A DNA stretch of 64,000 nt from an uncultured Acidobacteriota bacterium (GCA_963839295.1 CAWIUK010000015.1:43347-107346), one strand, 5' to 3'. Positions 1,777-56,606 are shown, counted from the first letter of the stretch. Notes: generated by a model not told the origin, from the sequence alone. Program-made: numbers and translations.

Positions 1777-2231
1777 CGGCTGCGCGGATCCTCGTCGTCG
1801 AGGACGGACGCGAGTACGTGGACGGGTTCGCGCGCCTCGCGGCGGCGAAGGGAGTCGAGGCGGCGTTCGTGCGCGCGGGCAGCCTCGCCGAGGCGCGGGA
1901 GGCGCTCCGGGAGGGAAGGCCCGACGCGGTCTTCCTCGACGTCGTCTTCGACCGGACTCCGGAGCCCGATCTCGCGGGGGACCTCGACGCGCTCGTCGCG
2001 CGCACCGGCGGCGACCGCGAGCGCGCCGTCCGGCACCTCGCGACGAACCAGGGCTTCTACGTCCTCGACGCGCTCGCGGACGAGCTCGCGGGCGTCCGCG
2101 TCGTTCTCGCGTACGACTTCACGGGGGAAGAGAAGAGGCTGGCTTCGCTCCAGGAGCGCTTTCCGATGCTCAGCGGCCTGCCGGATGGAGCCTCTCTGGG
2201 CGCCGCGCTGGACGATCTGCTTCGGAAATAG
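1773..2231 (+). CDS. response-regulator receiver (REC) domain protein
   Basis: GTG start at 1773 overlaps the upstream stop (GTGA). Translation is VTAARILVVEDGREYVDGF...AVFLDVVFD, a REC-like fold. It sits inside the artefactual long frame 174..2231. Stop TAG is at 2229-2231. Confidence 0.5.
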   Translation: MTAARILVVEDGREYVDGFARLAAAKGVEAAFVRAGSLAEAREALREGRPDAVFLDVVFDRTPEPDLAGDLDALVARTGGDRERAVRHLATNQGFYVLDALADELAGVRVVLAYDFTGEEKRLASLQERFPMLSGLPDGASLGAALDDLLRK

Positions 2232-2370
2232 AAGACGAAGAGGAAGAGTTCTTAGAAGGTAATTGCAGCCCGGGCGCCGGCGGCCCCCGCGAGTTGCGGC
2301 GCGGCCGATGCCCTCTTAACCTTCTAAGAGAATCTTCTCTTCGGTTCTTCTCTCGGTCTCTCTTCTTTCG
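2231..2370. repeat. inverted-arm repeat unit 1 (forward arm, GC-rich core, reverse arm), intergenic, filling the whole gap between two convergent stop codons
   Basis: Forward arm GAAGACGAAGAGGAAGAGTTCTTAGAAGGTAA at 2231-2262. A GC-rich palindromic core lies at 2263-2311. Reverse arm CCTCTTAACCTTCTAAGAGAATCTTCTCTTCGG... at 2312-2368. The unit starts at the last base of the TAG stop of the receiver gene and ends 1 bp before the stop of the GAPDH-like gene (2372). Confidence 0.75.
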
Positions 2371-4183: not shown

Positions 4184-4758
4184 TGTTCGAGGAGAACGAA
4201 CGGGATTTGCTTAGAAAGGTCGCGAGGGAGGCGGCGGCCCGTGCGATGGGGCTGCGTCTCGCGCCAGCGGCCGCTCGACCCGCCGCGCAGCCGGCCGCGG
4301 CCTTCGCTCCGCCTGCATCCCCTCTTTCACTCGAAGAAATCTCCGGTCTCTTCGTCACATGGCTGAAGGACGGCCGGCCTCGCGGAAGAAGCGGGACTCT
4401 CGCCCCGGATGCGCCCCTCTTTACACTCGTAGAAACTCTCGCGGTGGACGCGCTCCTGCACGACCCGCGCGTCCCGCCCGCAACCGCGAAGGAGCTCCCG
4501 CGCTACTCGCCCCGCATCTCCGTCCTCTCCGCCTTCGAAGAAATCTCCTCTTCCTCCACCGTCGTCGTCGGCACGCACGGCGTGATCGCGGAAAAGGGGA
4601 AGCGGTGGGGAGTCGTCCTTCCCCAGGACGCGGACGGGCTGGGATGGGACGGCGACCGCCTTGTCGGGCAGGCCTGCCTCAGGGCCGGCCTGCCGGAAGA
4701 GAGCTGGAGGGCCGCCGGGTCGGTCCGACTCCGCCGCTTCACGGCCGAGACCTTCTGA
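4180..4758 (+). CDS. AMMECR1 domain protein; carries repeat arms in-frame
   Basis: AMMECR1-like blocks GLFVTW...RDPRVPP...VGTHGVIAEKGKRWGVVLPQ...LRRFTAETF. Codons 3-16 (EENERDLLRKVARE) are written by a diverged forward arm GAGGAGAACGAACGGGATTTGCTTAGAAAGGTCGCGAGGGAG. Confidence 0.7.
   Translation: MMFEENERDLLRKVAREAAARAMGLRLAPAAARPAAQPAAAFAPPASPLSLEEISGLFVTWLKDGRPRGRSGTLAPDAPLFTLVETLAVDALLHDPRVPPATAKELPRYSPRISVLSAFEEISSSSTVVVGTHGVIAEKGKRWGVVLPQDADGLGWDGDRLVGQACLRAGLPEESWRAAGSVRLRRFTAETF
4189..4352. repeat. inverted-arm repeat unit 2, inside AMMECR1 and in-frame
   Basis: Forward-type arm at 4189-4230. Reverse-type arm CCCTCTTTCACTCGAAGAAATCTCCGGTCTCTTCG at about 4319-4352. Rare codons (TTG, CTT, AGA, AAG, AGG) are used. 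Confidence 0.55.
4521..4558. repeat. solo reverse-type arm inside AMMECR1 (GCCTTCGAAGAAATCTCCTCTTCCTCC)
   Basis: Shares an exact 20-mer CCTTCGAAGAAATCTCCTCT with the reverse arm at 42551-42570. Encodes SAFEEISSSS in frame. Confidence 0.6.
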
Positions 4759-5593: not shown

Positions 5594-6412
5594 TCAGGCC
5601 CGGCTGAGAACGAAAAGGAGGAGCCCCGCCGCCACGGCCGCGTTCAGCGATTCCACGCTCCCGCCGAGCGGGAGCGTGAGCCGCCGGTCGAGCGCGGCCT
5701 CGATCCCGGGCGAGATCCCGTGTCCCTCGGAGCCGACGACGAGGACGAGCGGGCGGACCTTCGCGGCCCGGTCGGGCGGCTCTCCGCCGTGGGCTTCGGC
5801 GCCGGCGAGGATGGCGCCGAAGGAGCGCGCCCACGCGATCGCCTCGGGCTGCGCGACGCGGGCCGCGATCGGCACGCGCAGGGCGCTCCCCGCCGACGCG
5901 CGCAGCGCACGGGGCGAGTACGGAAAGGCGCAGCCGGGCGTCGCGACGACGCCGGCGACGCCAAACGCCTCGGCGCAGCGGACGATCGCGCCGACGTTCG
6001 CGGGGTCCTGGATTCCGTCGAGGAGAAGAAAGAGAGAGGACGAAGAAGGGGATTTCTTCGAAGGTGAAGAGAGGGAAGACAGCGTTCGGTGCGGGGGCGG
6101 AGCGAGAGCCGCGATGCCGCGCGTCGACGGGAGATTGGAAAGCCTCTTCAGGACGCGGGGCGAAACCGTCGTTACGCGAGGGGGCGGCGTCGCTCCGCCG
6201 CCTCCCGGCGCTCCTTCCCCTCTTACCCTTCTAAGAAAATCCGCGTTCTCTTCGGACTTCTCATCGATGACGAACATTTCTTCCAGAGGCACGCCCGCGT
6301 CGAGGGCTTCTTCCACCATCCGTCTGCCCTCGAGGAGCATGCGGTCGCCGGCGGCGACCGCGCGGGCGGCCGCGACGATACGCGGGTTGGAGGGGGAGTC
6401 GATCCGGGACAT
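5594..6412 (-). CDS. TrmH/SpoU-family RNA 2'-O-methyltransferase carrying an in-frame repeat unit
   Basis: SpoU blocks LFLLLDGIQDPANVGAIVRCAEAFGV, LVLVVGSEGHGIS, LPLGGSVESLNAAVAAGLLLF. A roughly 65-aa low-complexity segment (SEENADFLRRVRGEG...SSPSKKSPSSSS) is encoded by repeat unit 3. Confidence 0.7.
   Translation of the reverse strand: MSRIDSPSNPRIVAAARAVAAGDRMLLEGRRMVEEALDAGVPLEEMFVIDEKSEENADFLRRVRGEGAPGGGGATPPPRVTTVSPRVLKRLSNLPSTRGIAALAPPPHRTLSSLSSPSKKSPSSSSLFLLLDGIQDPANVGAIVRCAEAFGVAGVVATPGCAFPYSPRALRASAGSALRVPIAARVAQPEAIAWARSFGAILAGAEAHGGEPPDRAAKVRPLVLVVGSEGHGISPGIEAALDRRLTLPLGGSVESLNAAVAAGLLLFVLSRA
6021..6262. repeat. inverted-arm repeat unit 3, inside the trmH-like CDS and in-frame
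   Basis: Forward arm GAGGAGAAGAAAGAGAGAGGACGAAGAAGGGGATTTCTTCGAAGGTGAAGAGAGGGAAGAC at 6021-6080. Core of about 135 bp. Reverse arm CCTCTTACCCTTCTAAGAAAATCCGCGTTCTCTTCGGACTTCTC at 6217-6262. Confidence 0.8.
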
Positions 6413-12270: not shown

Positions 12271-13848
12271 TCAGCCGGGGGGAAACATGCTCGTGAGGAG
12301 GTGCTTCTGCACCTTCCCGAGTGCGTTCCGGGGCAGCTCCGCGACGGCGATGACGTCGCGGGGCTTCTTGTAGTCCGCGAGGTTGGCGGCCGCGAAGGAG
12401 GCGACCTCCGCGCAGGCCGCCGCGGGCTCGCAGCCCGCGGCGAGGACAAGGGCGGCGGCGACGCGCTGGCCCCAAACGCGGTCCTCGACGCCGACGACGG
12501 CCGCGTCCCTCACGGACGGGTGGCGCCGGAGGACGTCCTCGATCTCCCGCGCGGCGATCTTGTAGCCGCCGCTCTTGATGATGTCGACGGACTTCCGGCC
12601 CGCGATCGTGATGTAGCCGTCCGCGCTCCTGCGCGCGACGTCGCCGGTCAGGAACCAGCCGTCGCGGAAAGACGCGGCCGTTTCGGCTTCCCGGCCCCAG
12701 TAGCCGTTCATGATCCCGTCGCTCTTCACGACGATCTCGCCCAGCTCGCCGTCCGCGACGTCGCGCCCCGCGTCGTCGACGATGCGGACGGCGCCGCCCG
12801 GCGCCGGCAGGCCGACGGTGCCGGGCCGGCGCTCGCCGTCGTACGGGTTTGAGAGCGTGAACAGCGTCTCGCTCATCCCGTAGCGCTCGAGGATCGCGTG
12901 CCCCGTCCGCGCGCGGAAGGCCTCGAAGTCCGCCGCGGGCAGGGGCGCGCTGCCGGCGGTGAAGAGGCGCGCCCGCCGCAGGGCCGCGGCGGCCTCCGGG
13001 TGCGCGTCGAGGTGCTCGAGGAGCCGCACGTACATCGTCGGGACGCCCATGAAGACCGTCGCGCCCTCCTCCGCGAAAGCCCGGACCACGCGGGCCGCGT
13101 CGAAGCGCGCCTCGAGGAGGAGCGTCAGGCCGTTCACGAGCATCCCGGCGACGCCGAGGACGAGCCCGTGCACGTGGAAGAGCGGCAGCGCGAGGACGAG
13201 ACGGTCTTCCGGCGTGAAGCGCCACAGGCCCGTCACCGACGCCGTGTTGTCCGCGAGCGCCCTGTACGACAGCGCGACGCCCTTGCTCTTGCCGGTCGTG
13301 CCCGACGTGTAGATGAGCATCGCCACGTCCCCGTCCCGGGGTGCCGTGGCTCGAGCGGGGTCCGAAGAGAGATTCTTCCTGGAAGGTGAAGAGGGGGAGC
13401 CCGCAGCGGCCGCGGACGGCGGTCCCGCCGGGAACGCCTCTCGAAGCGCGATCACGTGCTTCAGATGCTCCGGGCACCTTCCAAGAATCTCTCTTAGAAC
13501 CCCGGTGCATTCTTCATCTTCGCCGCCCACGAGCACCGCCGCCGCCCCCGAGTCCTCGAGGATGTGCCGGGCCTCGTCCGCCTTGTAACGCGTGTTGATC
13601 GGGACGTGGACGACGCCGGACTCCAGGTGGGCGACGAACGCGGCGACCACCTCGGGGCACGTCTCGGCGAAGACGGCGACGCGGTCGCCGCGGCGGATGC
13701 CGAGGGACCTCAGCCTGTCAGCGTAGTGATTCGCGAGACGCTGTATCTCCTCGAACGTGTAAGAGCGCCCGTTCCACACCACGGCCGGATGCGCCGAGCG
13801 GCTCTGCAGGCAACCGAGGAGGCGATCGTGCGCAGCGGCAGTGGTCAT
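12271..13848 (-). CDS. AMP-dependent synthetase/ligase (acyl-CoA synthetase family) carrying an in-frame repeat unit
   Basis: AMP-binding motif [14 protein letters not shown], a C-terminal ...GKVQK block, 525 aa. The most likely start is ATG at 13846-13848 (MTTAAAH); the track start at 13866 is a TTG inside a repeat arm. Confidence 0.8.
   Translation of the reverse strand: MTTAAAHDRLLGCLQSRSAHPAVVWNGRSYTFEEIQRLANHYADRLRSLGIRRGDRVAVFAETCPEVVAAFVAHLESGVVHVPINTRYKADEARHILEDSGAAAVLVGGEDEECTGVLREILGRCPEHLKHVIALREAFPAGPPSAAAAGSPSSPSRKNLSSDPARATAPRDGDVAMLIYTSGTTGKSKGVALSYRALADNTASVTGLWRFTPEDRLVLALPLFHVHGLVLGVAGMLVNGLTLLLEARFDAARVVRAFAEEGATVFMGVPTMYVRLLEHLDAHPEAAAALRRARLFTAGSAPLPAADFEAFRARTGHAILERYGMSETLFTLSNPYDGERRPGTVGLPAPGGAVRIVDDAGRDVADGELGEIVVKSDGIMNGYWGREAETAASFRDGWFLTGDVARRSADGYITIAGRKSVDIIKSGGYKIAAREIEDVLRRHPSVRDAAVVGVEDRVWGQRVAAALVLAAGCEPAAACAEVASFAAANLADYKKPRDVIAVAELPRNALGKVQKHLLTSMFPPG
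13362..13520. repeat. inverted-arm repeat unit 4, inside the acyl-CoA synthetase CDS and in-frame
   Basis: Forward arm CCGAAGAGAGATTCTTCCTGGAAGGTGAAGAGGGGGAG at 13362-13396. Reverse arm CACCTTCCAAGAATCTCTCTTAGAACCCCGGTGCATTCTTCATCTT at 13475-13520. On the coding strand the arms encode GEDEECTGVLREILGRCP and GSPSSPSRKNLSSD. Confidence 0.8.
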
Positions 13849-13849
13849 G

Positions 13850-13896
13850 CCCTCTTCACCTTCCAAGAAAATCTTCTTCCGTTCCGTTCTTCGTCT
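13850..13896. repeat. solo arm filling the whole 48-bp gap between the livF stop and the acyl-CoA synthetase start; it supplies a Shine-Dalgarno-like GGAAGGTGAAGAG 4-7 nt upstream of the ATG
   Basis: CCCTCTTCACCTTCCAAGAAAATCTTCTTCCGTTCCGTTCTTCGTCTC. On the minus strand this reads ...GATTTTCTTGGAAGGTGAAGAGGGC-ATG. Confidence 0.75.
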
Positions 13897-14616
13897 CTAG
13901 ACCGACGCGTACCCGAGGTACCGGTCGCGGACGCCGTGGTCGTTGCGGAGGTCCTCGGCGCGGCCCGAGAGCGTGATCGTGCCCGTCTCCATCACGTACG
14001 CCCGGTCCGCGAGCGCGAGCGCATGCGGGACGTTCTGCTCGACGAGGACGATCGTGACGCCGCGCCCGCGGATGGCCCTGAGCGACGCGAACACCTCCTT
14101 GACGAGGAGAGGGGAGAGGCCGAGGGCGGGCTCGTCGAGGAGGAGGAGGCGCGGCTGCGCCATCAGGCCCCGCCCGATCGCGCACATCTGCTGCTCGCCG
14201 CCCGAGAGCGTGCCCGCCTTCTGGTGGATCCGGCGCTTCAGGACCGGAAACATCGCGAAGACCTCCTCGAGCGTCGCGTCGGCCTTCGCGCGCGCGGCGC
14301 GCGGGTAAGCCCCCATCCGGAGGTTCTCGAGGACCGACATCCCCGGCCAGAGCTGGCGGCCCTCGGGAACGAGGACGAGGCCGCGGGCCGCGAGCGCGTG
14401 CGCCGGCGACCCGCCCACGACGTCGCCTTCGAAGACGACGCGCCCCGCGCGCGGCGCGAGGAGGCCGGCGACGGTCTTGAGCGTCGTGGACTTGCCGGCG
14501 CCGTTCGCGCCGACGAGCGTCACGACCTCGCCTTTCTCGACGGAGAAGGAAAGGCCGCGCACGGCCTGGACGTCGCCGTAGAACACGTCGACCGCTTCGA
14601 CGGAGAGGAGGCTCAC
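13897..14616 (-). CDS. livF: branched-chain amino-acid ABC transporter ATP-binding protein LivF (operon 1)
   Basis: Walker A GANGAGKST, signature LSGGEQQM, Walker B LLLLDEP. The GTG start overlaps the livG stop (GTGA). Confidence 0.85.
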   Translation of the reverse strand: MSLLSVEAVDVFYGDVQAVRGLSFSVEKGEVVTLVGANGAGKSTTLKTVAGLLAPRAGRVVFEGDVVGGSPAHALAARGLVLVPEGRQLWPGMSVLENLRMGAYPRAARAKADATLEEVFAMFPVLKRRIHQKAGTLSGGEQQMCAIGRGLMAQPRLLLLDEPALGLSPLLVKEVFASLRAIRGRGVTIVLVEQNVPHALALADRAYVMETGTITLSGRAEDLRNDHGVRDRYLGYASV

Positions 14617-15353
14617 GAGGCGGCCTCCTCGTCGCCGAGGTAGGCCGAGACGACGGCCGGGTCGGAGAGGACCTCGCGGGGCGCACCCTCCGCGATCTTC
14701 TCGCCGAAGTTCAGGACGAGGATGCGGTCCGTGACGCCGGCCACCGCGTGGACGTGGTGCTCGATCATGAGGACGGTCACGCCCGCGTCGCGGATGCTGC
14801 GGACGAGCCCCATCGCGGCCACGATCTCGGAGGGGTTCAGGCCGCCCATGACCTCGTCGAGGCACAGGCAGGCCGGCTCGGTCGCGAGGGCGCGCGCGAT
14901 CTCGAGGCGCTTGAGGTCGCCGATCGGGAGAGTGCCCGCGAGCGCGCGGGAGCGCGGCGCGAGGCCGGTCCGCTCGAGGACGTCCGCGACGAGCCGCCGG
15001 GCCTCCGCCCCGCGGCGGCGGCCCGCGCCGAAGTGCGCGCCGATCGAGACGTTCTCCTCGACCGTCATGTCCCGGAAGGGCCGGACGATCTGGTGCGTGC
15101 GGGCGAGGCCGCGACGGACGACGACGTTCGTCGGGAGGCCGTTCAGGCGATCGCCCCGGAACCGGATCTCGCCGGCCGTGACCGACTGCGCGCCGACGAG
15201 GCACGAGAAGAGCGTCGTCTTGCCCGCGCCGTTCGGCCCGATGACGCCGAAGATCTCCCCGGACGCGACGTCGAACGACACGCCCGTGAGCGCGGTCAGG
15301 CCGCCGAAGCGCTTCGTGACGCCGCGGACGGAGAGGAGCGGCTCAGCCGGCAC
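14613..15353 (-). CDS. livG: branched-chain amino-acid ABC transporter ATP-binding protein LivG (operon 1)
   Basis: GPNGAGKTT, signature LPIGDLKRLEIARALA, LCLDEVMGGL. Confidence 0.85.
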   Translation of the reverse strand: MPAEPLLSVRGVTKRFGGLTALTGVSFDVASGEIFGVIGPNGAGKTTLFSCLVGAQSVTAGEIRFRGDRLNGLPTNVVVRRGLARTHQIVRPFRDMTVEENVSIGAHFGAGRRRGAEARRLVADVLERTGLAPRSRALAGTLPIGDLKRLEIARALATEPACLCLDEVMGGLNPSEIVAAMGLVRSIRDAGVTVLMIEHHVHAVAGVTDRILVLNFGEKIAEGAPREVLSDPAVVSAYLGDEEAAS

Positions 15354-16299
15354 GCGCGGCCTCCGGCGGCGGGGCCGGCGTGCGGCGCACGCGCGCGCCG
15401 AAGCGGCGCGCGAGGCCGACGAGGCCCTTCGGCTCGTAGAGCATCACGAGGATCAGGAGCCCCCCGTAGAGGAAGAGGTACGAGTCGCGGAGCGCGGGAA
15501 TCGACAGCAGCTTGATCTGGAGCGTCGAGAACACGATCGCCCCGAGTACGGGCCCGGCCACGGTCCCGACGCCGCCCACGATAGGCGCGAGGACGATCGA
15601 GAGGCTGAGGCGGAAGTCGAAGACCGAGCCCGGCGCGATGTACTGGAAGTTGATCGCGTAGAGGGAGCCCGCGAGCGCCACGAGCGCGGCGGACAGCGCG
15701 TGCGCGCCGAGCTTGAACCGCGTCGAGCCCACGCCGAGCGCCTCGGCGGCGTCGATGTCCTGCTTGATCGCGGCGAGCGCGTGCCCGAACGCGCTCCTCT
15801 TCACGAGGGCCGAGATCGCGACCGTGACGACCGCGAGGGCGGCCATGGCCTCGTAGTTCAGCGTGAAGTCGAACGACCCCGGGGGCATCCTCAGGCCGCT
15901 CGAGCCGCCCGTGAACGAGACGCTCGAGGCCACGACGCGCACGGCCTCGCCCACGCCGATCGTGGCGATCGTGAAGTACGGCCCGCGCAGCCGGAACGCG
16001 GGAAGGCCGATCGCGACCGAGAAGAGGGCGGAGAGGACGGCTCCGAGCGGCAGCGTCCAGAACGGGTTGACCCCCTGCAGCGACAGGAGGACCGTCGTGT
16101 ACGCGCCGATCCCGAGGAACGCCGAGTACCCGAGCGAGACCTGTCCCGCGAAGCCGCCGAGGATGTTCCAGGCCGCGGCGAGGATGACGGCGAACGCGAG
16201 GTTCCAGACGTCGTTCAGCGTGCCGCGCTCGAGGAAGAGCGGGGCGGCGAGGGTCCACGCGGCCAGGGCGGCGCCCGCGGCGAGCGGAAGCCGCTTCAT
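15343..16299 (-). CDS. livM: branched-chain amino-acid ABC transporter permease LivM (operon 1)
   Basis: Polytopic permease (MKRLPLAAGAALAAW...). Its ATG overlaps the livH stop (ATGA). It is the C-terminal 319 aa of the artefactually extended ORF 15343..17538. Confidence 0.8.
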   Translation of the reverse strand: MKRLPLAAGAALAAWTLAAPLFLERGTLNDVWNLAFAVILAAAWNILGGFAGQVSLGYSAFLGIGAYTTVLLSLQGVNPFWTLPLGAVLSALFSVAIGLPAFRLRGPYFTIATIGVGEAVRVVASSVSFTGGSSGLRMPPGSFDFTLNYEAMAALAVVTVAISALVKRSAFGHALAAIKQDIDAAEALGVGSTRFKLGAHALSAALVALAGSLYAINFQYIAPGSVFDFRLSLSIVLAPIVGGVGTVAGPVLGAIVFSTLQIKLLSIPALRDSYLFLYGGLLILVMLYEPKGLVGLARRFGARVRRTPAPPPEAARAG

Positions 16300-17195
16300 C
16301 TGAAGGCCGCTCGCGCGCGCGCGACGAGGCCGGGAAGGCCCTGCGGAAAGACGACCAGCGCCACGAAGAGGAGCGTGAACGAGGCGGCGTCCTCGAGGGA
16401 CGTCGGGAGCGTCGTCCACGCGCCGAGGGCGTTCTCGAGGAACGCGAGGACGAGCGCGCCCGCCGCGACGCCGGTGACGCTCTCCATGCCCCCGAGGACG
16501 ATGATGCAGAACGCCTTGAGGAGGAAGCTCCGGCCGAAATCGGGCGTGAACGCGTAGAGCGACGACAGCATCCCGCCGGCGACGCCCGCGAACGCGGTCC
16601 CGAGCCCGAAGGCCGTCGCCGAGATGCGGTCCGCGTCCACGCCCGCGAGGAGGGCCGCGTCGCGGTTCTGCGTGACGGCGCGGATCGCGCGCCCGAGGTA
16701 CGTGGCCCGGAGCACGACGTTCAGGAAGACGAGCGAGAGGACGCTGCCGAGGAAGACGAAGAGCGAGGGGACGCCGACCCTGACGCCGAAGACCGGGAGG
16801 GACTTCATCGTGTACGGCGTCAGGATCGACTGCGTGTCGCCGCCCCAGACCGCGTACGCGAAGTTCTGGAGGACGAGCCAGACGCCGAAGAGGAGGAGGA
16901 GGGACTCCATCGACGGCGTGGCTCCGGAGCGGGGGAGCCGGCTCACGACGAGGCGGTACAGGACGACGCCGAACAGGAAGAAGAGCGGGCCGACGACGAG
17001 GAGCGAGAGAAACGGGTCGAGCGCGAAGCGCGAAAACAGCGCGAACGTCGCGTAGGCGCCCAGCATCATGAGGCCCGCGTGCGCGAGGTTGATGATCCGC
17101 ATGACGCCGTAGATGACTGCGAGGCCGTACGCCATGGTCGCGTACAGCGCCGCGGAGATCACGGTGTTGACGAGGACCCCGGCAACGTCCGTCAC
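16296..17195 (-). CDS. livH: branched-chain amino-acid ABC transporter permease LivH (operon 1)
   Basis: 299-aa polytopic permease with LivH-like blocks (INLAHAGLMMLGAY...). Confidence 0.85.
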   Translation of the reverse strand: MTDVAGVLVNTVISAALYATMAYGLAVIYGVMRIINLAHAGLMMLGAYATFALFSRFALDPFLSLLVVGPLFFLFGVVLYRLVVSRLPRSGATPSMESLLLLFGVWLVLQNFAYAVWGGDTQSILTPYTMKSLPVFGVRVGVPSLFVFLGSVLSLVFLNVVLRATYLGRAIRAVTQNRDAALLAGVDADRISATAFGLGTAFAGVAGGMLSSLYAFTPDFGRSFLLKAFCIIVLGGMESVTGVAAGALVLAFLENALGAWTTLPTSLEDAASFTLLFVALVVFPQGLPGLVARARAAFR

Positions 17196-20164: not shown

Positions 20165-20189
20165 GGTGGTCTCCTGCAGCTCGGAAGTG

Positions 20190-20280
20190 TGTCCGTCTAA
20201 CGATATCGAGTTCAGCGGCGAGAGGGAAGGAGCGCAGCGACTGACGCCGAGTCCGCGACAATGAGGTGTTAGCCGCCGCT
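20190..20280 (-). repeat. attC-like site 1 (about 85-bp family)
   Basis: GTCTAAC at 20195-20201, internal imperfect palindrome, GTTAGCC at 20268-20274. It abuts the TAG stop of the toxin gene. Confidence 0.55.
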
Positions 20281-20581
20281 AGCGAGTGAGCGCGTTCTGG
20301 ACGGCCGCTGGCCCTCGATGCTGATGCAGACAGGCCAGAACCCGAATGCGATCGGGAAGCACAACGTAGAACAGCGCGTACGGAAAGCCAGGGACGAGCG
20401 CGCGCCGAGCCTCACGGTGAGCCAAGGGACAGGCGAGCGGGTGCTCGGCGATGAGATGCACGACGAGGTCGAGTGAAGCCCTGAACCGACCCCCGAGGCC
20501 GACCTGCCGTGCCTCGTACCAGGCTTGGATTTCGTGAACCTCGCGATCGGCGAGGCCGCGAAAAACGACCGGCAGGCTCAC
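20279..20581 (-). CDS. parE: type II toxin, RelE/ParE family
   Basis: ALVPGFPYALFYVVLPDRIRVLACLHQHRGP C-terminal signature. Overlaps the upstream antitoxin by 4 bp. Confidence 0.65.
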   Translation of the reverse strand: MSLPVVFRGLADREVHEIQAWYEARQVGLGGRFRASLDLVVHLIAEHPLACPLAHREARRALVPGFPYALFYVVLPDRIRVLACLHQHRGPAAVQNALTR

Positions 20582-20799
20582 CGGCTACGTTCGAGAGACG
20601 AGCGAACCTCGGGCCACGGCCGTTCGTCTGAGGGGTTTGAGGCCGCATCGACGAGCCGCCGGTCGATTTCGGCGCGCTGCTCGTCCGTAACCGATACCGA
20701 AGCGGATTCCGCGACGACGCTGTCCCAGATGGCTTGGACGAGCTCAATTCGTTCCGGGACCGGGAGGCGAAGGGCATCGTCGAGTACTGGCGTCGACAT
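20578..20799 (-). CDS. antitoxin (putative addiction-module component, TIGR02574-like)
   Basis: 73 aa: LPVPERIELVQAIWDSV...TDEQRAEIDRRLVD...WPEV. Confidence 0.55.
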   Translation of the reverse strand: MSTPVLDDALRLPVPERIELVQAIWDSVVAESASVSVTDEQRAEIDRRLVDAASNPSDERPWPEVRSSLERSR

Positions 20800-20811
20800 G
20801 CAGTGATTATA

Positions 20812-20942
20812 CGGCGCCTAACGATCAAGACGATCGTCCCCGTCCCGGTGAAGACGGTCGAGCAGCAGACCATCTGTTCGCTCCAGAGACCGCACGCACT
20901 TGATCCCAGGGAGGAGTCCAGATACGCGTTGTTAGACCCCGC
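20812..20942 (-). repeat. attC-like site 2 (longer variant, about 125 bp)
   Basis: GCCTAAC at 20816-20822, GATCAAG/CTTGATC inner inverted repeats, GTTAGAC at 20931-20937. The TAA stop of the upstream cassette gene lies inside the core. Confidence 0.45.
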
Positions 20943-21393
20943 GGTTACTGGTTGGGCCGGGGCCGAGCGTGGCGTTCAGCTCGTGGTCGCTGAGCCAGTT
21001 CTTGGCTACGGACCTCATGCGGTCATCGTGGTACCGGAACCACTGTGCACGAAGAGCCGGAAATGCCGTGAGGACCGACTTGAAGTCCCGAAACGGGTGC
21101 CGACCGTCGAGTGCCGCGAGAAGCCGCCTGCGAGCGAGACCAGGAGGAACGTCGGCCGCGAAGCCCTCCATGATGCGACGCCCCTCCCGTGAAGAAATGG
21201 GTTCGATCGGGAGGTATCGTTCCGGCTCCTGTTCCAGCTCGGCCTGAACCGTGGAGTCGCCGGTGATCGCTGGGTTGATGACAGGAATGACCTCGCCGGT
21301 GCGCAGGTCGAGGACCCATTCGGTTTCAGCCTCGTGACTTTCGAGAGCCACGATCAAGGCATCTGGGTCGACGGTGATACGAGCCGTAACCAT
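20932..21393 (-). CDS. hypothetical cassette-encoded protein
   Basis: The likely start is MVTARITVDPDAL (ATG 21391-21393). About 150 aa. No confident family assignment. Confidence 0.4.
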   Translation of the reverse strand: MVTARITVDPDALIVALESHEAETEWVLDLRTGEVIPVINPAITGDSTVQAELEQEPERYLPIEPISSREGRRIMEGFAADVPPGLARRRLLAALDGRHPFRDFKSVLTAFPALRAQWFRYHDDRMRSVAKNWLSDHELNATLGPGPTSNRGV

Positions 21394-21397
21394 GTTT

Positions 21398-21490
21398 GCG
21401 GGGTCTAACGATATCGAGTTCAGCGGCGAAGAGGAAGGAGCCAAGCGACTGACGATGAGTCCGCTGCAACGAGGGGTTAGGCGGCGCCTA
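21398..21490 (-). repeat. attC-like site 3 (about 85-bp family)
   Basis: GTCTAAC at 21403-21409 through GTTAGGC at 21476-21482. Nearly identical to sites 1 and 4. The TAG stop of the upstream gene overlaps its end. Confidence 0.55.
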
Positions 21491-21967
21491 CTGCTTTCGG
21501 AACAGGAATGCGCCGGTGGTGGTGCCGTAGCTCCAGACGATGATTAGGTCGGTCGCTTTCAGGGCTTCGCGGACGCCACCGAGAGCGTTGTGGAGCATGT
21601 AGTTGCCCTCAAGCGTAGCGTTCGACTGCAATGCCACCTCGCCGACAACTGGGTCATCGACGGGGTAGGAAGGAGGTAACGGCTTGCCGGTGGGGCGTAT
21701 GCCCAGCACGTTGATTGAGTAGGCGTTGCCCCAAGGAAGACCGGATGATGCGAGCGACAGCGGTGCCGAGGAAATGTTTGTGACGGTGAAGTGGAGCGCG
21801 GGCTCACCCGCGACCACGATGCCGGTTGCCTCCACCCGAATTCGAGCGGGCGAGCGAGCTACTGCCGCCCGTTTTGAGTGCTGGAGCCATAGCGCGAAAG
21901 GATCCTCGGCCTGAGCCGCAGCTACGGCTGTGACCGCCAGCGAGACGATTGCGATGAACATGCGCAT
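21488..21967 (-). CDS. secreted hypothetical protein (signal peptide)
   Basis: MRMFIAIVSLAVTAVAAAQA signal peptide. 159 aa. Confidence 0.45.
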   Translation of the reverse strand: MRMFIAIVSLAVTAVAAAQAEDPFALWLQHSKRAAVARSPARIRVEATGIVVAGEPALHFTVTNISSAPLSLASSGLPWGNAYSINVLGIRPTGKPLPPSYPVDDPVVGEVALQSNATLEGNYMLHNALGGVREALKATDLIIVWSYGTTTGAFLFRKQ

Positions 21968-21977
21968 GGCGCTTCTG

Positions 21978-22068
21978 TAGCCGCCTAACGATATCGAGTT
22001 CAGCGGCGAGAAGGAAGGAGCGCAGCGACTGACGCCGAGTCCGCGGCAATGAGGTGTTAGGCGGCTGT
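21978..22068 (-). repeat. attC-like site 4 (about 85-bp family)
   Basis: GCCTAAC at 21983-21989 through GTTAGGC at 22056-22062. Confidence 0.55.
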
Positions 22069-32764: not shown

Positions 32765-33469
32765 TCAGACGCCGAGGTAAGCCTTCCTGACGTGCTCGTC
32801 GTTCAGGAGGTCCTTCCCCGTGCCCTCGAGCACGATGCGCCCGTTCTCGAGGACGTAGGCGCGGTCCGCCACCGCGAGCGTCTTGAACACGTTCTGCTCG
32901 ACGAGGAGGACGGTCACGCCCGCGGCGTGGACCTCCGCGATGACGCGGAAGATGTCCGAGACGAGGATCGGGGAGAGGCCGAGCGACGGCTCGTCGAGCA
33001 TCAGGAGGCGCGGCTTCGACATGAGCCCGCGGGCGATCGCGCACATCTGCTGCTCGCCGCCCGACATCGTGCCGGCCGCCTGCTTCTCGCGTTCCTTGAG
33101 CCGCGGGAAGATCCCGTACACCTTCTCGAGCATCTCGGGCCGCGACTTCCTCGCGTCCGGCGTGAGCGCCCCGAGGAGGAGGTTCTCCTTGACGGTCATC
33201 TCCGGGAAGAGCCGCCGCGCCTCGGGGACGTGGGCGATTCCGAGCCCGACGAGGTCGTGGGTCTCTCGCGTGTGGAGCGGCTGCCCTTCGTACGTCACCG
33301 CGCCCTTCCGGGGCCGGAGGATCGAGGAGACGGTGTTGAGGCTCGTGGTCTTGCCCGAGCCGTTCGCGCCGATGAGCGCGACGATCTCGCCCTTCTGGAC
33401 GTTGAACGACACGTCCCACAGCACCTGGACGTCGCCGTAGAAGACGTCGACGTTCCGGACCTCAAGCAT
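32765..33469 (-). CDS. livF: LivF-type ABC ATP-binding protein (operon 2)
   Basis: GANGSGKTT, MSGGEQQM, LLMLDEP. Confidence 0.85.
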   Translation of the reverse strand: MLEVRNVDVFYGDVQVLWDVSFNVQKGEIVALIGANGSGKTTSLNTVSSILRPRKGAVTYEGQPLHTRETHDLVGLGIAHVPEARRLFPEMTVKENLLLGALTPDARKSRPEMLEKVYGIFPRLKEREKQAAGTMSGGEQQMCAIARGLMSKPRLLMLDEPSLGLSPILVSDIFRVIAEVHAAGVTVLLVEQNVFKTLAVADRAYVLENGRIVLEGTGKDLLNDEHVRKAYLGV

Positions 33470-34181
33470 GCGCGGCTCCCAGGTACGCCTCGATCACGCG
33501 CGGGTCGTTCGCGACCTCGGCCGGGGAGCCCTCCGAGATCCTCTCCCCGTAGCAGACGCACAGGAGGCGCTGCGAGATCGACATGATGACGCGCATGTTG
33601 TGCTCGATGATGAGGATCGTGACGCCGCTCTCGTGGATCTTGCGGACGATCGTGATCGTCTTCTCGACCTCGGAGGGGTTGAGCCCCGCGAAGTTCTCGT
33701 CGAGGAGAAGGAGGTCCGGCTTCGTCGCGAGGGCGCGCGCCATCTCGAGGCGCTTGCGCATCCCGAGGGGCAGGCTGCCCGCGAGGCGGTCGCGCCAGGC
33801 TTCCATCTCCGTGAAGGCGATCGCCTCGAGGGCGATGCGGCTCGCCTCGCCGCGGTGACCGGTGCGGGAGAACGCCGAGACCATGACGTTCTCGAGGACC
33901 GTGAGGCGCGCGAGCGGCTTGACGACCTGGAACGTCCGCGCGAGGCCGCGCCGGCAGACCTGGAAGGGCTTGAGGCCGTCGATCCGCTCGCCCTTGAAGA
34001 GGATCTCGCCCTCCGTCGGTGGGATGTAGCCGTTGATGAGGTTGAAGATCGTCGTCTTCCCGGCGCCGTTTGGGCCGATCAGGCCGAGGATCTCGCCTTT
34101 TTCGATCCGGAACGTCATGCCCCCGACGGCCTGCAGGCCGCCGAAGCGCTTCGTGACGCCCCGGAGCTCGAGGAGGCTCAT
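33462..34181 (-). CDS. livG: LivG-type ABC ATP-binding protein (operon 2)
   Basis: GPNGAGKTT...LPLGMRKRLEMARALA...LLLDENFAGL. Confidence 0.85.
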   Translation of the reverse strand: MSLLELRGVTKRFGGLQAVGGMTFRIEKGEILGLIGPNGAGKTTIFNLINGYIPPTEGEILFKGERIDGLKPFQVCRRGLARTFQVVKPLARLTVLENVMVSAFSRTGHRGEASRIALEAIAFTEMEAWRDRLAGSLPLGMRKRLEMARALATKPDLLLLDENFAGLNPSEVEKTITIVRKIHESGVTILIIEHNMRVIMSISQRLLCVCYGERISEGSPAEVANDPRVIEAYLGAAHA

Positions 34182-35143
34182 GCGGCCCCCTTCGACGTCG
34201 CCGGGGAGGCGGCCCGCAGGCGGCGGCCCGCCCAGCGCTCGCGGAGGGTCCCGACGATCCCCTGCGGGAAGAAGATGATGATGACGATGATGAGGATTCC
34301 GAAGAAGAGCAGGTGCCCCGACTTCAGGAAGACGCGGAACGCCTCGGACATCAGGATGTAGAGGACGGCGCCGACGGCCGGGCCCTCCATCGTCGCCGCG
34401 CCGCCGAGCATCGTGACGAGGATCATCATGATCGAGATGTCGGGGAGCGAGAAGACGATGCCCGGGTCGATGAACCCCATGTAGTTCATGTAGAAGCTGC
34501 CCGCGACGCCGGTGAAGAAGGCGCTGATGAGGAGCGAGATGAGCTTGTACTTCGTCGTGTCGATCCCGAGCGACTCGGCGCAGTCCTGGTCCTCGCGGAT
34601 CGCGAGGAAGTAGAACCCGAGCTTGCTGCGCATGACGGCGCGGATCGTCAGGAAGCTCGCGGCGGCGAGCGCGAGAATGATCCAGTAGTACGCGGCCTTC
34701 GAGTTGAAGGCGGGGATGTAGAGGATCCCCTCCGCGCCGTTCGTGAGGTCCTTCCAGTTCACCGCGATCAGCCTGAGGACCTCGGAGAGCGCGAGGATCG
34801 AGAGCGAGAAATACGGTCCGCGGAGGCGGAAGCAGATCCAGCCGAGGACCGCCCCGACGAGCGCCGCGAGGATTCCTCCGAAGAGCAGTCCCCACCAGGC
34901 CGTCGCGGGCGAGAGGCCCGACTTGACCATGATGGCCGTCGTATAGGCGCCCACGCCGAAGAAGGCGGCGTGGCCGTACGAGACCTGGCCGGTGTACCCG
35001 CCGAGGAGGTTCCAGGCCTGCCCGAGGAGGACCCACAGGAAGACCATGACGAGCATGTGGAGGACGTACGTGTTCGAGACGAACAGCGGGACCGCCGCGA
35101 GCGCGGCGGCGCACGCCGCGGCCGGGAGAAGGCCCTTCGTCAT
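34178..35143 (-). CDS. livM: LivM-type permease (operon 2)
   Basis: Polytopic permease with AT-richer codon usage than the flanking sequence. Confidence 0.85.
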   Translation of the reverse strand: MTKGLLPAAACAAALAAVPLFVSNTYVLHMLVMVFLWVLLGQAWNLLGGYTGQVSYGHAAFFGVGAYTTAIMVKSGLSPATAWWGLLFGGILAALVGAVLGWICFRLRGPYFSLSILALSEVLRLIAVNWKDLTNGAEGILYIPAFNSKAAYYWIILALAAASFLTIRAVMRSKLGFYFLAIREDQDCAESLGIDTTKYKLISLLISAFFTGVAGSFYMNYMGFIDPGIVFSLPDISIMMILVTMLGGAATMEGPAVGAVLYILMSEAFRVFLKSGHLLFFGILIIVIIIFFPQGIVGTLRERWAGRRLRAASPATSKGAA

Positions 35144-35146
35144 CGC

Positions 35147-36070
35147 TCAGGCCCGCCCTTTTCCGAGGAGGCCCCTGGGCAGGAAGATGAGGACGAGGAC
35201 GAAGATGATGAAGCCGAACGCGTCCTTGTAGCCGAGGGAGACGTAGACAGACCCGAGCGACTCGGCGAGGCCGAGGACGAGGCCGCCCAGCACGGCGCCG
35301 GGGATGTTCCCGAGGCCGCCGAGGACCGTGATCACGAACGCCTTGCTCGTGAACGGCCCGCCGATCTGCGGGTACAGATAGTAGACGGGGTCGAGGAGCG
35401 CGCCGGCGGCGCCCACGAGCGCCGAGCCGAGGCCGAACGTGATGTACGTGATCCGCTTCGTGTTGATCCCCATGAGCGACGCCGCGCGCTTGTCCTGTGC
35501 CGTCGCGCGGATCATCCGGCCCGTGTCCGTCATCCCGAGGAACACGAAGAGGGCCGCGCCAAGGGCCACGGCGATCCCGAACGCGACCAGGAACGGGTAG
35601 CTGAAGGAGAGCGAGATCGTCTGCCCGCCCATCTTCACGTCCCAGTAGATCGTCTTCGAGGCGTACGAGACGGGCACGGACCGGTAGTTCGCCGTGAAGA
35701 GGAGGAGCGCGAGGTTCGACAGGACGAGGCCGATGCCGACCGTGAGGAGGACCTGGTTCTGCGGGAGGACCGAGTCCGCGTTCATGACCGGCGTGATGAG
35801 GAACTTCTGGATCGCGACGCCGAGCAGGAACATCGCCGGGCAGACGACGAGGAGCGAGACGTACGGGTCCACCTTCCAGAGCGTGAACATCCCGTACGTC
35901 ATGTACATCGCCACCATCATCAGCTCGCCGTGCGCGAGGTTGATGATCTTCATGACGCCCATGATCAGGGACATCCCGAGCCCGATCAGGGCGTAGAGGC
36001 CCCCGAGCAGGATCCCCGAGATGAGGACCTGCCCGAGGAGCTCGATCTGTCCGGCGACCTGCGGCGACAT
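35147..36070 (-). CDS. livH: LivH-type permease (operon 2)
   Basis: [17 protein letters not shown] block. 307 aa. Confidence 0.85.
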
Positions 36071-42021: not shown

Positions 42022-42808
42022 CCCACGCCCGCTCGTCCGGATAGCCCGCGGCGCGTGCGGCCGCGCGGAAACGGACGGGGGGCTCGAACGGCGGCTCGTC
42101 CGTGAGGACGATCGTGCCCCAGTGCATCGCGACGAGCGTCGCGGCGCGGAGGTCGCGTCCGGCCGCGACGGCCTCCTCGGGATCGAGGTGGACCGGCCGC
42201 ATGATCGACGCCGGCTCGTACGCGCCGATCGGCAGCAGCGCGGCGTCGAACGGCCCGTGCTCGCGGCCGAGGTCTGAGAAAACCGGTCCGTATCCGGTGT
42301 CACCCGCGAAGTACAGCGAGAGGGACGGCGACTGGATCTTCCACGAGCACCAGAGCGTCGCGTTGCGGTCGAACGGCGTCCGGCCGGAGAAGTGGATGGC
42401 GGGAAGACAGGTAAGCGAGATCGAAGAGGAAGAAGAAGGATTTCTTAGAAGGGTGCCCTCTCCCCAGACCAGCTCCCGGACATCCGAGTAATGCCGCGAC
42501 GCGAAGAACGAACCGAGCCCGGAAGGCACAATGGCTGCCGCCGCCCCTCTTACCTTCGAAGAAATCTCCTCTACGGATCTCGCATCGAGATGGTCGTAAT
42601 GATTGTGGGAAATCAGGACCGCGTCGATGGGCGGCAGCGCGTCGATCGACAGGCCCGCCGGGACGTAGCGCTTCGGGCCGAGGCCGGGGACCGGGCTCGC
42701 GAAGTCGGAGAGGAACGGATCGGTCAGGATCGTGAAGCCGCCGGTGCGGACAAGGAAGCAGGCGTGACCGAGCCATGTGAGGCTCTCGGGGCCGGCGGCG
42801 GCGAGCAT
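41987..42808 (-). CDS. MBL-fold metallo-hydrolase (NAPE-PLD-like, Lactamase_B_2) carrying an in-frame repeat unit
   Basis: LISHNHYDHLD...IVPSGLG...ELVWGEG...LPAIHFSGRT...LWCSW...YFAGDTGY...FGPFDAALLPIGAYEP. The convergent 3' overlap with the hydrolase gene is 35 bp. Confidence 0.7.
   Translation of the reverse strand: MLAAAGPESLTWLGHACFLVRTGGFTILTDPFLSDFASPVPGLGPKRYVPAGLSIDALPPIDAVLISHNHYDHLDARSVEEISSKVRGAAAAIVPSGLGSFFASRHYSDVRELVWGEGTLLRNPSSSSSISLTCLPAIHFSGRTPFDRNATLWCSWKIQSPSLSLYFAGDTGYGPVFSDLGREHGPFDAALLPIGAYEPASIMRPVHLDPEEAVAAGRDLRAATLVAMHWGTIVLTDEPPFEPPVRFRAAARAAGYPDERAWVMRIGETRETR
42403..42578. repeat. inverted-arm repeat unit 5, inside the MBL-fold CDS and in-frame
   Basis: Forward arm GGAAGACAGGTAAGCGAGATCGAAGAGGAAGAAGAAGGATTTCTTAGAAGGGTG at 42403-42456. 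Reverse arm CCCTCTTACCTTCGAAGAAATCTCCTCTACGG at 42545-42576. The arms encode ARSVEEISSKVRG and GTLLRNPSSSSSISL, in loops whose length equals the loops in NAPE-PLD homologues. Confidence 0.8.
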
Positions 42809-44864: not shown

Positions 44865-46595
44865 TCACAGGTGCTTCAGCGCCTCGAGCGCGGGCTCGAG
44901 GCGCTGGCGGCGTCCGAAGAAGTCGGCCCACGGGTCGCGCCTTTTCAGGCGCGCCGCGAAGTTCCCGATCGTGAAGTCCTCGGCGCGGAGCGACGGAGTC
45001 ACCTCGCTCCACGCGAGGGGCGTCGAGACGGGCGCGTGCGGGCGGCGCCGCACCGAGTAGGGCGAGACGACCGTCTGCCCGAAGGCGTTGCGGAACGAGT
45101 CGAGGAAGACGCGCCCCTTTCGCGCCGCGATCCGCATCTCCATCGTGAGGTCCTTCGGCCATGCGGCGGCGAGCCGCGTCCCGAGCGTCTTCGCGAACCA
45201 CGTGACGGCCTCGGTGCCCGGGCCGCGCACGATCGGGACGAAGACGTGGAGGCCCTTTCCGCCGGAGGTCTTCACGTACGAGACGAGCTCGAGGGCGTCG
45301 AGGGCCTGCTTGACCTTCAGCGCCGCGGAGGCGGCGTCGGAGATCAGGCCAGAGTCGGGGTCGAGGTCGAAGCAGACCCAGTCGGGCCTGTCGAGGTCGT
45401 CGGCGCGGCTGCCCCAGACGTGGACGGCGATGCAGCCGAGGTTCGCGAGGGCGAGCTGCGTCTCGAGCGCACCGCCCACGACCGTGTTCGTGATCTTGCG
45501 TTCCTCTCCGTGGCGCACGGCGACCGTCGGCGTCCCGGGAGGCATGCTGCCGGGCTTTTCCTTCTGGTAGAAGCACTCTCCACCGAGGCCGTCCGGGCAG
45601 CGCTCGAGAGAGAGCGGCCGGTCCTCGACCCACGGACGCAGCCGCTCGAAGACGCCCGCGTAGAACGCGACGAGATCGCCCTTCGTCCATCCCTCCTCGG
45701 GCCAGAAGACCTTGTCCGGGTTGGAGACGGGCACGGGGAAGACGCGGGAAGAAGACGAAGAGGGACGGGGGGATTTCCTGGAAGGTGAAGAGGGCGGATC
45801 ATCCGCGGCTGCGCGCGGCGGCGACACAATGCGCGCCGGCGTCGCCTTCGCCCTCTTACCATTCGAAGAGATCTTCGGTTTCTCCTCGGACCCTGAATTT
45901 CGAGGCCGCGAGTGCCATACGGCCGGGGAGTCTTTCTTCTTTCGCTCGAGGAGTTTCGGGTTCGCGAGGAGCTTCTCGACCTCGGCGACCGGGTCGCCCG
46001 TGGAGGCCTTCTCGACGTCGCCGCCCTCGTCGATCGCGATCTGCGTCAGGAGGCGGTTCGACGCGACCGATCGCGGGCGCGTGCCGGCGACGTCCTCGTC
46101 CGAGGCGAAGTCGTCGCGGTGCTTGATGAGGAGCCACGCCGGCTTCGCCGAGCCGCCCCAGCCCTTCGTGCGAACGAGGACCCACGAGCCCTTCAGCTTC
46201 TCGCCGTGGAGCGTGAACTTGAGGTCGCCTTTCCCGAGTGCGGCGTCGACGTCCGGCGACTCGGGCGTCCACGTCCCGCGGTCCCAGACCATCACCGTGC
46301 CGCCGCCGTACTCCTCGGCCGGGATGATCCCCTCGAAATCCGCGTACTCGAGCGGGTGGTCCTCCACGTGGGAGGCCATCCTCCTGACCGCCGGGTCGAG
46401 GGACGGGCCCTTCGGCACCGCCCACGAGAGGAGGACGCCGTTCCATTCGAGCCGGAAGTCGTAATGGAGCGCGGTCGCCCGGTGCTTCTGGACGACGTAC
46501 AGGAGGCCGCGCCGCCGGCTCTTCGGTTTCGCCGCGCCCGGCGGCTCGGGCGTGACGGCGAACCGGCGTTTCCGGCGGTATTCGTCGAGCGGCAT
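44865..46595 (-). CDS. ligD: LigD-type 3'-phosphoesterase (PE) plus polymerase/primase domain protein, with no ligase domain
   Basis: PE domain DEYRRKRRF..TPEP...VVQKHRATALHYDFRLEWNGVLLSWAVPKGPS. Pol domain CFYQKE...VCFDLDPDSG...SGGKGLHVFVPI. The low-complexity interdomain linker carries repeat unit 6. Confidence 0.8.
   Translation of the reverse strand: MPLDEYRRKRRFAVTPEPPGAAKPKSRRRGLLYVVQKHRATALHYDFRLEWNGVLLSWAVPKGPSLDPAVRRMASHVEDHPLEYADFEGIIPAEEYGGGTVMVWDRGTWTPESPDVDAALGKGDLKFTLHGEKLKGSWVLVRTKGWGGSAKPAWLLIKHRDDFASDEDVAGTRPRSVASNRLLTQIAIDEGGDVEKASTGDPVAEVEKLLANPKLLERKKKDSPAVWHSRPRNSGSEEKPKISSNGKRAKATPARIVSPPRAAADDPPSSPSRKSPRPSSSSSRVFPVPVSNPDKVFWPEEGWTKGDLVAFYAGVFERLRPWVEDRPLSLERCPDGLGGECFYQKEKPGSMPPGTPTVAVRHGEERKITNTVVGGALETQLALANLGCIAVHVWGSRADDLDRPDWVCFDLDPDSGLISDAASAALKVKQALDALELVSYVKTSGGKGLHVFVPIVRGPGTEAVTWFAKTLGTRLAAAWPKDLTMEMRIAARKGRVFLDSFRNAFGQTVVSPYSVRRRPHAPVSTPLAWSEVTPSLRAEDFTIGNFAARLKRRDPWADFFGRRQRLEPALEALKHL
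45748..45890. repeat. inverted-arm repeat unit 6, inside the ligD interdomain linker and in-frame
   Basis: Forward arm GAAGAAGACGAAGAGGGACGGGGGGATTTCCTGGAAGGTGAAGAGGGCGG at 45748-45797. Reverse arm CCCTCTTACCATTCGAAGAGATCTTCGGTTTCTCCTCGG at 45851-45890. Confidence 0.8.
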
Positions 46596-56604: not shown

Positions 56605-56606
56605 CC

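Follow-up and report, generated by a model that had tools for sequence, protein, structure and literature searches.

Uptake sequences and related motifs, namely USS in the Pasteurellaceae, DUS in Neisseria and HIP1 in cyanobacteria, are clade-specific, occur on both strands and lie within coding sequence where the peptide permits. They are kept at orthologous sites and form inverted pairs at gene ends. MIRU elements consist of direct repeats of 40-100 bp arranged in tandem, together with small coupled ORFs. The palindromes of the REP class measure 20-40 nt, lie outside genes and carry GTAG/CGTC heads, and the spacers of REPINs are short and family-conserved. The Rickettsia palindromic elements (RPE) are 100-150 bp in size, conserved over their full length and simply inserted. 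They are known both between genes and within ORFs, in which case they are translated in frame into hydrophilic loop peptides (PMC10969869).

The window analysed here is a 64,000-nt stretch of DNA from an uncultured Acidobacteriota bacterium, with a GC content of ~70%. It carries a repeat family whose members ('arms') combine a polypurine tail with the core TTTCTTAGAAGGTGAAGAGGG. A 20-mer of the core was matched eight times in the window, against 0.01 matches expected, and a profile built from the copies identified 10 arms at E <= 6.5e-6, together with several weaker ones (Table 1). Each arm is comprised of a variable, purine-only tail (GAAGAAGACGAAGAG...) that is prone to slippage, followed by an AT-rich core of ~23 nt (GATTTCTTAGAAGGTGAAGAGGG). 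Conservation ends abruptly after GAGGG; this sharp end faces inward and the outer end is the variable tail. The core logo showed only a TTCTnAGAA mini-palindrome and no GTAG/CGTC head, and the arm is not itself palindromic. A known RNA family was rejected: nothing reached the gathering score in Rfam 15, and no arm gave a match at E <= 0.1. The searchable literature contained nothing on the arm repeat.

Table 1. Arms of the repeat family and the features beside them in the 64,000-nt window (positions counted from its first nucleotide).
Feature	Position	Strand	Description
Solo arm	13849-13896	(-)	Polypurine tail and core GATTTTCTTGGAAGGTGAAGAGGGC; profile score 28.6 bits
livF stop codon TAG	13899-13897	(-)	ABC ATPase (Pfam); gene 13897-14616
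Acyl-CoA synthetase start codon ATG	13848-13846	(-)	Gene 12271-13848; Pfam AMP-binding and AMP-binding_C
SD-like AAGGTGA within the arm	13862-13856	(-)	7 nt upstream of the synthetase ATG
Intragenic arm in synthetase	13360-13398	(+)	In-frame reading SPSSPSRKNLSS; ~20 aa before YTSGTTG
Weak arm in synthetase	13468-13492	(-)	GAGAGATTCTTGGAAGGTGCCC, encoding REILGR; 7.7 bits; nearer partner of the 13360-13398 arm
Paired element	2227-2370	arms 2227-2270 (+), 2307-2370 (-)	Occupies the full gap between convergent stops
Three weak arms of the same orientation	4318-4360, 4412-4440, 4523-4557	(-)	Inside the AMMECR1 gene
Arm pair	6025-6265		Inside the TrmH/SpoU methyltransferase gene; flanks native VSPRVLKRLSNLPSTRGIAALA
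Arm pair	42421-42575		Inside the NAPE-PLD-like metallo-beta-lactamase (MBL) hydrolase gene
Arm pair	45740-45894		LigD linker, from the phosphoesterase to the primase-polymerase domain
Solo arm	53307-53357	(+)	Immediately follows the TGA that ends an MFS transporter gene; intrinsic terminator 53353-53380
Solo arm	56598-56647	(+)	End of an aldehyde dehydrogenase gene; GC hairpin 56646-56676 follows
Arm pair	61442-61593		Inside the isoleucyl-tRNA synthetase (IleRS) gene; flanks a native 15-residue stretch

Other repeats were also noted in the window. At 20188-22063 (also ~20817-20937), an 88-nt repeat is present in three copies, alongside a fourth element that differs from it, each bounded by RYYYAAC...GTTRRRY (for example, GTCTAAC...GTTAGCC). 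Each of these elements is found a short distance downstream of a small ORF on the minus strand (DUF1801, UPF0158 and unknowns), in a region of low GC (0.63). The arrangement resembles a gene-cassette array of the integron type, with attC sites; the ORFs tested included no integrase.

The distribution of the family was analysed by scanning the core sequence TTCYTNGAAGGTGAAGAG over one genome per species, which identified at least 116 loci. Of the 116 matches listed, ~86 belonged to Thermoanaerobaculia/Acidobacteriota MAGs, more than 20 in number, and other taxa were represented by single matches among those listed. Relatives of the window IleRS are annotated as Thermoanaerobaculia, and the repeat family is specific to this group of the Acidobacteriota. 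A total of 201 arms scoring at least 10 bits were found in 698 kb, compared to two in the reversed decoys. The density is approximately one arm per 3-7 kb. Three 23-kb loci that had not been picked for their arms showed one arm per 3-4 kb. A phage-borne element was rejected; 2.9 million viral contigs showed no enrichment, with 26 single matches and no clusters.

The arms follow a strict pair arrangement. Among adjacent arms less than 300 nt apart, 47 of 54 faced inward, with the cores towards each other ('+-'), and the remainder were '-+' (one), '++' (four) and '--' (two). The centre-to-centre spacing has a sharp onset at ~71-75 nt, a peak at 74-77 nt and a tail to ~200 nt, and an inward-facing partner 40-200 nt away was present for ~70% of the strong arms, even for those inside genes. 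The interiors of the pairs share no sequence between loci, with the exception of homologous kinase coding sequence. Interior folding showed no excess over shuffled sequence, and a terminator hairpin in the interior was rejected on this basis. On a single strand, the arms of a pair hybridise with each other in the minimum free energy (MFE) structure (median of 23 bp, ddG ~-9 kcal/mol). Partner-arm identity was equal to that of random re-pairing in all four segments tested, with no co-variation, and a template-switch or hairpin co-evolution of partners was rejected accordingly. As a mate is no more complementary than arms elsewhere, each arm conforms independently to the family consensus. The lack of compensatory change between partners argues against a pure hairpin role, and the lower limit of ~40 nt for the interior is odd for an RNA hairpin. 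A 10.5-nt periodicity was absent from the pair spacing, contrary to what a rigid DNA loop predicts, and helically phased DNA looping was therefore rejected. An autonomous arm-bounded element was rejected for the 0.7 Mb analysed, in which no arm pairs at IS-like spacing and no arm-flanked units of transposase size were found.

The junction of livF and the acyl-CoA synthetase gene provides the clearest view of a single arm. The sequence-only reading had proposed that a solo arm fills the entire 48-nt gap between the two genes and places an SD-like segment 7 nt before the synthetase start. Both were verified: the 48 nt read AGACGAAGAACGGAACGGAAGAAGATTTTCTTGGAAGGTGAAGAGGGC on the minus strand, the livF TAG and the synthetase ATG flank them directly, and AAGGTGA stands at the distance described. 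The livF TAG shares its frame with the synthetase ORF. AAGGTGA agrees with the extended SD sequence GGAGGTGA at seven of eight positions; this consensus is a general one, and the likeness to an anti-SD complement rests on it rather than on the 16S 3' end of the host, as no rRNA end lies within the loci compared. An SD-like 4-mer precedes 49% of the called ATG starts in the lineage, compared to 18% in a control window, and the Thermoanaerobaculia lineage thus uses SD sequences.

Twelve loci were compared at this junction. In 10 orthologous metagenome loci (58-82% identity), livF and the synthetase gene are joined by an ATGA stop/start overlap; L117 and the window have lost the overlap and contain an arm of ~50 nt between GT and ATGA. 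No target-site duplication was observed at this filled/empty site, where GT/ATGA became GT-arm-ATGA, and the new livF stop is supplied by the outer edge of the arm. In L117, the arm carries AAGGT 9 nt before an in-frame TTG. The N-terminus of the synthetase is conserved in the orthologues (MTTAAAHDRLL in the window, MTTGGAHDRLL in L118), which identifies the ATG at 13848 as the orthologous start, in agreement with the start codon assumed by the sequence-only reading; it is the same ATG that overlaps the livF stop in the 10 orthologous loci. These alignments show the junction arm to be an insertion into an ancestral ATGA coupling of livF and the synthetase gene, and it probably now provides the ribosome-binding site (RBS) of the latter. 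With ATGA in ten loci and the arm inserted in two, use as an RBS is plausible, yet it is an exaptation and does not represent what the family does in general. A contribution to synthetase translation from re-initiation, or from the TTG at 13866, is conceivable. Two paralogous LIV-type ABC transporter operons (livHMGF-like) are present in the window, at 13897-17195 and 32765-36070, with 73-78% nucleotide identity over several stretches.

The loop arm inside the synthetase gene (13360-13398) is kept in orthologues down to 68% identity and is missing from those at 58-64%. When the first 561 nt of the mRNA (13340-13900, minus strand) were folded, the MFE and centroid structures alike were predicted to pair the junction arm with this loop arm, its complement 450 nt downstream (z = -4.4). 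Such a stem would possibly sequester the SD-like segment once the downstream arm had been transcribed. In the synthetase orthologues of L119 and L120, the loop before YTSGTTG appears to contain the in-frame core in tandem, as CCTTCTAAGAAATTTCTCTC and then CTTTCTAGAGAATTTCTCTC, a local arm duplication.

Further copies had been placed by the sequence-only reading exactly at gene boundaries, and those it cited are where it described them. The paired element lies between a TAG (2229-2231) of the plus-strand gene and a CTA (2372-2374) of the convergent gene. The arm at 53316 follows a TGA (53314-53316) and precedes a canonical terminator (a 12-bp stem and a T tail) that adjoins the arm and is not the arm itself. 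The arm at 56609 follows a TAG (56602-56604) and precedes a GC hairpin that lacks a T tract. The polypurine tail of this arm contains the TAG stop and codes for the C-terminal KKKR of the aldehyde dehydrogenase. A lysine-rich aldehyde dehydrogenase tail, AKKKR or AKKKK followed by a stop from the arm tail, is conserved in four genomes (56590-56604 in the window; 17762-17780 in L197; L198; L199). For the family as a whole the boundary claim does not hold, the cited copies being a selected subset. Further arms lie in frame within ORFs, and six genes of the window contain in-frame, stop-free arms flanked by Pfam domains (TrmH/SpoU, MBL, LigD, IleRS, AMMECR1 and the acyl-CoA synthetase).

Gene calls were made using a home-made codon-usage caller and cross-checked with public gene calls at three loci. 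The arm cores were located inside genes in 57% of cases, between genes in 39% and across a gene end in 4%, compared to 86%, 8.8% and 5.2%, respectively, for random 23-nt segments; these proportions are approximate, since the loci were picked for a perfect core and the gene calls were home-made, and orthologous kinase loci inflate some of the counts. According to the public gene calls of three 23-kb loci, 18 of 22 arms (at least 8 bits) were intragenic. The arms show no preferred sense relative to the gene: of the 109 cores inside called genes, 57 were purine-sense and 52 pyrimidine-sense, and all frames were used. Core variants such as TTCGAA or GGTAAG were observed where the consensus would make a stop codon.

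Intergenic arms favour the 3' ends of genes. Their density was highest in convergent gaps (2.46 per kb), followed by tandem (1.13 per kb) and divergent gaps (0.69 per kb), and their outer side faced a gene tail in 45 cases and a gene head in 35, the corresponding background counts being 276 and 352. Where the arm faced a tail, the core was preceded at 14-43 nt by a stop codon in half of the cases, with the polypurine tail starting right after the stop. The proximity to stop codons suggested by the sequence-only reading is thus real for the intergenic copies; it arises partly because a purine-only tail cannot hold a stop codon and partly because the intergenic regions are compact. The corresponding proximity to start codons does not extend to the family, as only three of 191 arms (the window locus, L035 and L096) have an SD-like segment that is followed, at 4-12 nt, by the start codon of a good ORF. 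In tandem gaps, solo arms have the tail at the upstream stop and the core toward the next start in ~5-7 cases, against two in the opposite orientation. The termination role that had been suggested was not borne out: the terminator at 53353-53380 is the only canonical one beside an arm in the window, and terminator-like sites were not above the shuffled expectation. In three relatives, an arm pair lies near the 5' end of a PNP_UDP_1 phosphorylase gene (L197, 8774-8954; L198, 8837-8950; L199, 7744-7898). The called length of this protein is 307, 339 and 354 aa among the relatives, which could reflect a variable N-terminal insertion or starts miscalled through the arms.

Comparison with orthologues and solved structures showed two kinds of intragenic arm. 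Additional sequence was evident in some genes. The LigD orthologue in L051 lacks one arm and the interior and has the second arm alone, and IleRS and TrmH contain extra residues at the arm tails when compared to their homologues in the PDB. The poly-Ser stretch encoded by the IleRS arm tail (61442-61486) ranges from 0 to ~20 residues among relatives at 75-88% identity; this length variation among close relatives points to slippage of the tail. The stretch has the appearance of microsatellite-type slippage in an essential gene, and the MBL orthologue in L038 varies similarly. The LigD ORF (44865-49205, minus strand) can be extended upstream by 2.5 kb of open frame, antisense to a plus-strand gene with a strong coding signal (46740-49295); this extension is typical of the spurious long ORFs of high-GC DNA and may mislead gene callers.

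At other positions, the arm is laid over native protein sequence. The first MBL arm aligns without gaps to human NAPE-PLD, equal-length native sequence having been replaced, and the three arms of AMMECR1 leave the domain length unchanged, with 150 residues aligned to 150 positions of its profile. In IleRS, the cores code for the native motifs FFERV and FL, and the sequence between the arms is native as well. Arms in the kinase genes encode KVLPEEF.. and I(Y/H)SFEE with the spacing unchanged, and an arm in IspE encodes IHLSKRIP beside GLGGGS with the length unchanged. A simple MITE- or RPE-like insertion was rejected, given the native interiors and the overlay without length change in the PDB and orthologue alignments. 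We infer that arms arise both by insertion and by the tuning of compatible native sequence.

The arms are inherited at orthologous positions over considerable divergence. The MBL arms are kept in the L038 orthologue at 80% amino acid identity, and the IleRS arm peptides persist down to ~66% identity. Solo intergenic arms persist as well: those at 53307 and 56598 are found in relatives whose IleRS is 87-89% identical, the former, with its terminator, having an orthologue in L197, and the latter being kept in L197, L198 and L199. At the nucleotide level, the IleRS cores are near-invariant in four genomes (GAT TTC TTT GAA AGG GTA AGA GAG and TCT TAC TTT CTA AGA), compared to 63-74% identity at the 4-fold sites in the rest of the gene. 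The third codon position was A or T in 52% of the codons in cores and in 12.6% of those in the rest of the same genes. Intragenic arms are thereby kept at the nucleotide level through rare AT-ending codons, against the GC pressure of the genome. Locus-specific deviations from the consensus are inherited, which indicates that no genome-wide homogenisation takes place. The nucleotide-level conservation bears the hallmark of purifying selection, or else a persistent drive, acting on the nucleic acid.

With moderate confidence, we interpret the family as a selectively maintained, hairpin-capable cis-element, the arms of which are read sequence-specifically as inward pairs, with the local exaptation of one arm as an RBS. 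Each arm would be the recognition site of a hypothetical sequence-specific factor, the arms working in pairs. Such a pair may fold into a hairpin when it is transcribed or single-stranded, or it may serve as two sites on duplex DNA. The whole would constitute a REP-like housekeeping cis-element that is vertically inherited. At the livF/synthetase junction, the two genes were ancestrally coupled via ATGA until an arm of ~50 nt was inserted there; with the overlap lost, the AAGGTGA of the arm would drive initiation of the synthetase, and base-pairing to the complementary arm 450 nt further along the mRNA may modulate it. It is possible, if somewhat doubtful, that the arms are paired sites for a hypothetical dedicated factor that have been tuned through synonymous and loop codons at hundreds of places per genome, essential genes included, since the radiation of the clade at family level.

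The nucleotide-level conservation could also stem from drive and not from a benefit to the host. Two alternatives were considered. The arms may be purely selfish, non-autonomous mobile DNA of the MITE or RPE type, inserted at random, of which the harmless copies survive (in intergenic gaps, surface loops and stop-free frames) and the RBS and terminator effects are accidental. In-frame palindromic elements in Rickettsia provide a precedent (PMC10969869). The clear insertion at the livF/synthetase junction, the presence and absence of an arm with its interior in the LigD linker, the insertions in IleRS and TrmH relative to the PDB homologues and the synthetase loop insertion that is missing in distant orthologues all agree with such an origin, as do the hydrophilic, low-complexity arm peptides and the use of every open frame. 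We nevertheless regard it as unlikely. A mobile element of this type should have a conserved interior and a target-site duplication, and neither was observed, the latter at the one clean filled/empty site; the arms are sharply bounded on the inner side and run out into a variable tail on the other, partner arms are alike only as much as the arms of unrelated loci, and there are no arm-flanked transposase-sized units and no enrichment on viral contigs. Native peptides overlaid without a change in length (MBL, kinases, IspE and AMMECR1), and orthologous arms retained with their rare AT-ending codons across family-level divergence, are likewise difficult to reconcile with random insertion. An iterated motif under molecular drive, in the manner of USS and DUS, would account for the overlay on peptide-compatible coding sequence at constant protein length, and for the lineage-wide occurrence on both strands, at one per few kb, with orthologous positions conserved together with their locus-specific deviations. 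Arm-bearing fragments would be favoured in uptake or recombination, and the pairs would double as gene-end hairpins, in keeping with the enrichment in convergent gaps. Uptake through a single motif, however, does not predict an inward partner 40-200 nt away for ~70% of the strong arms, and the true insertions and expanding polypurine tails are also foreign to it; we consider this explanation improbable.

Two further explanations carry considerably less weight. The sequence-only reading had viewed the arms as dedicated translation-initiation or termination modules at gene boundaries. This stands for the junction locus, where the SD geometry is ideal and the start is orthologous, and two more such cases were found (L035 and L096); the orientation of solo arms in tandem gaps (~5-7 vs. 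two) and the stop codon that precedes the core by 14-43 nt in half of the arms facing a tail are also in its favour. For the family, RBS-usable arms number only three of 191, most cores are intragenic (57%), pairs dominate, both orientations relative to the gene are equally common, and one arm in the window adjoins a canonical terminator, with terminator-like sites at the shuffled level. The positional statistics thus largely refute this view, and we hold it to be very improbable. The shared inverted repeats flanking short variable segments, within genes as well, would also be expected of invertons, in which small segments are flipped by a site-specific recombinase. The interiors, however, have the same orientation and are functional in every orthologous comparison (IleRS in four genomes, MBL, kinases and IspE), and pairs are carried by essential genes such as IleRS, with hundreds of sites per genome implied; the likelihood of this explanation is negligible.

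The livF/synthetase junction represents a clean natural case in which the insertion of a repeat breaks translational coupling and brings a replacement ribosome-binding site. The clade is uncultured but widespread in soil and sediment, and its genomes carry one arm per few kb, mostly intragenic and with a strict pair grammar, which points to a sequence-specific and so far undescribed process acting on the whole chromosome or transcriptome. Protein lengths are altered via poly-Ser and Glu/Lys-rich loop insertions, and the arms will mislead gene callers, as well as codon-based analyses, in Thermoanaerobaculia MAGs. If the paired-site reading is true, the arms would constitute a genome-wide nucleic-acid signal superimposed on the protein code, with an inward-pair grammar that is without parallel among the described bacterial repeats, uptake sequences and iterated motifs. 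The identity of the factor that reads the arms would distinguish a new housekeeping system from a new selfish drive.

When compared to the known systems, the family shares features with several of them. As in MIRU, as these are generally described, an intercistronic repeat exactly fills an operon gap and has a stop and a start at its edges; here, the repeat is a lone arm from a family of inverted repeats, and its insertion broke an existing ATGA coupling instead of creating one. The arms resemble uptake sequences in being clade-specific, strand-symmetric, orthologously conserved and overlaid on coding sequence, and differ from the general descriptions of USS, DUS and HIP1 in their obligate inward pairing at a distance of at least 70 nt, their expandable polypurine tail and their true insertions. 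With MITEs such as Correia/NEMIS, ERIC and RUP, the pairs have in common the inverted terminal arms, a total size of 90-250 bp, some clear insertions and the occasional donation of expression signals to neighbours. In contrast to MITEs, there is no target-site duplication, the interior is not conserved, the outer end is variable and the inner end sharp, vertical conservation is deep and a matching transposase was not found in the 0.7 Mb analysed.

The likeness to the RPEs lies in short repeats that occur between genes and within ORFs, where they are read in frame and are stop-free. Whereas an RPE is conserved as a whole, only the two arms are conserved here, the interior is unrelated or native coding sequence, and the cores overlay residues without a change in length. 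Without a target-site duplication, a conserved interior or a sharp outer end, the family is neither a MITE nor an RPE. REP, BIME and REPIN sequences are similarly numerous, hairpin-capable, present as inverted pairs and enriched at 3' ends (convergent over tandem over divergent gaps); here, unlike in REPs and REPINs, the arm is not a palindrome, the spacers of 40-200 nt are unrelated and most cores are intragenic. Being neither extragenic nor self-palindromic, the arms are not REPs. The family is REP-like, RPE-like and uptake-sequence-like, yet a member of none of these classes.
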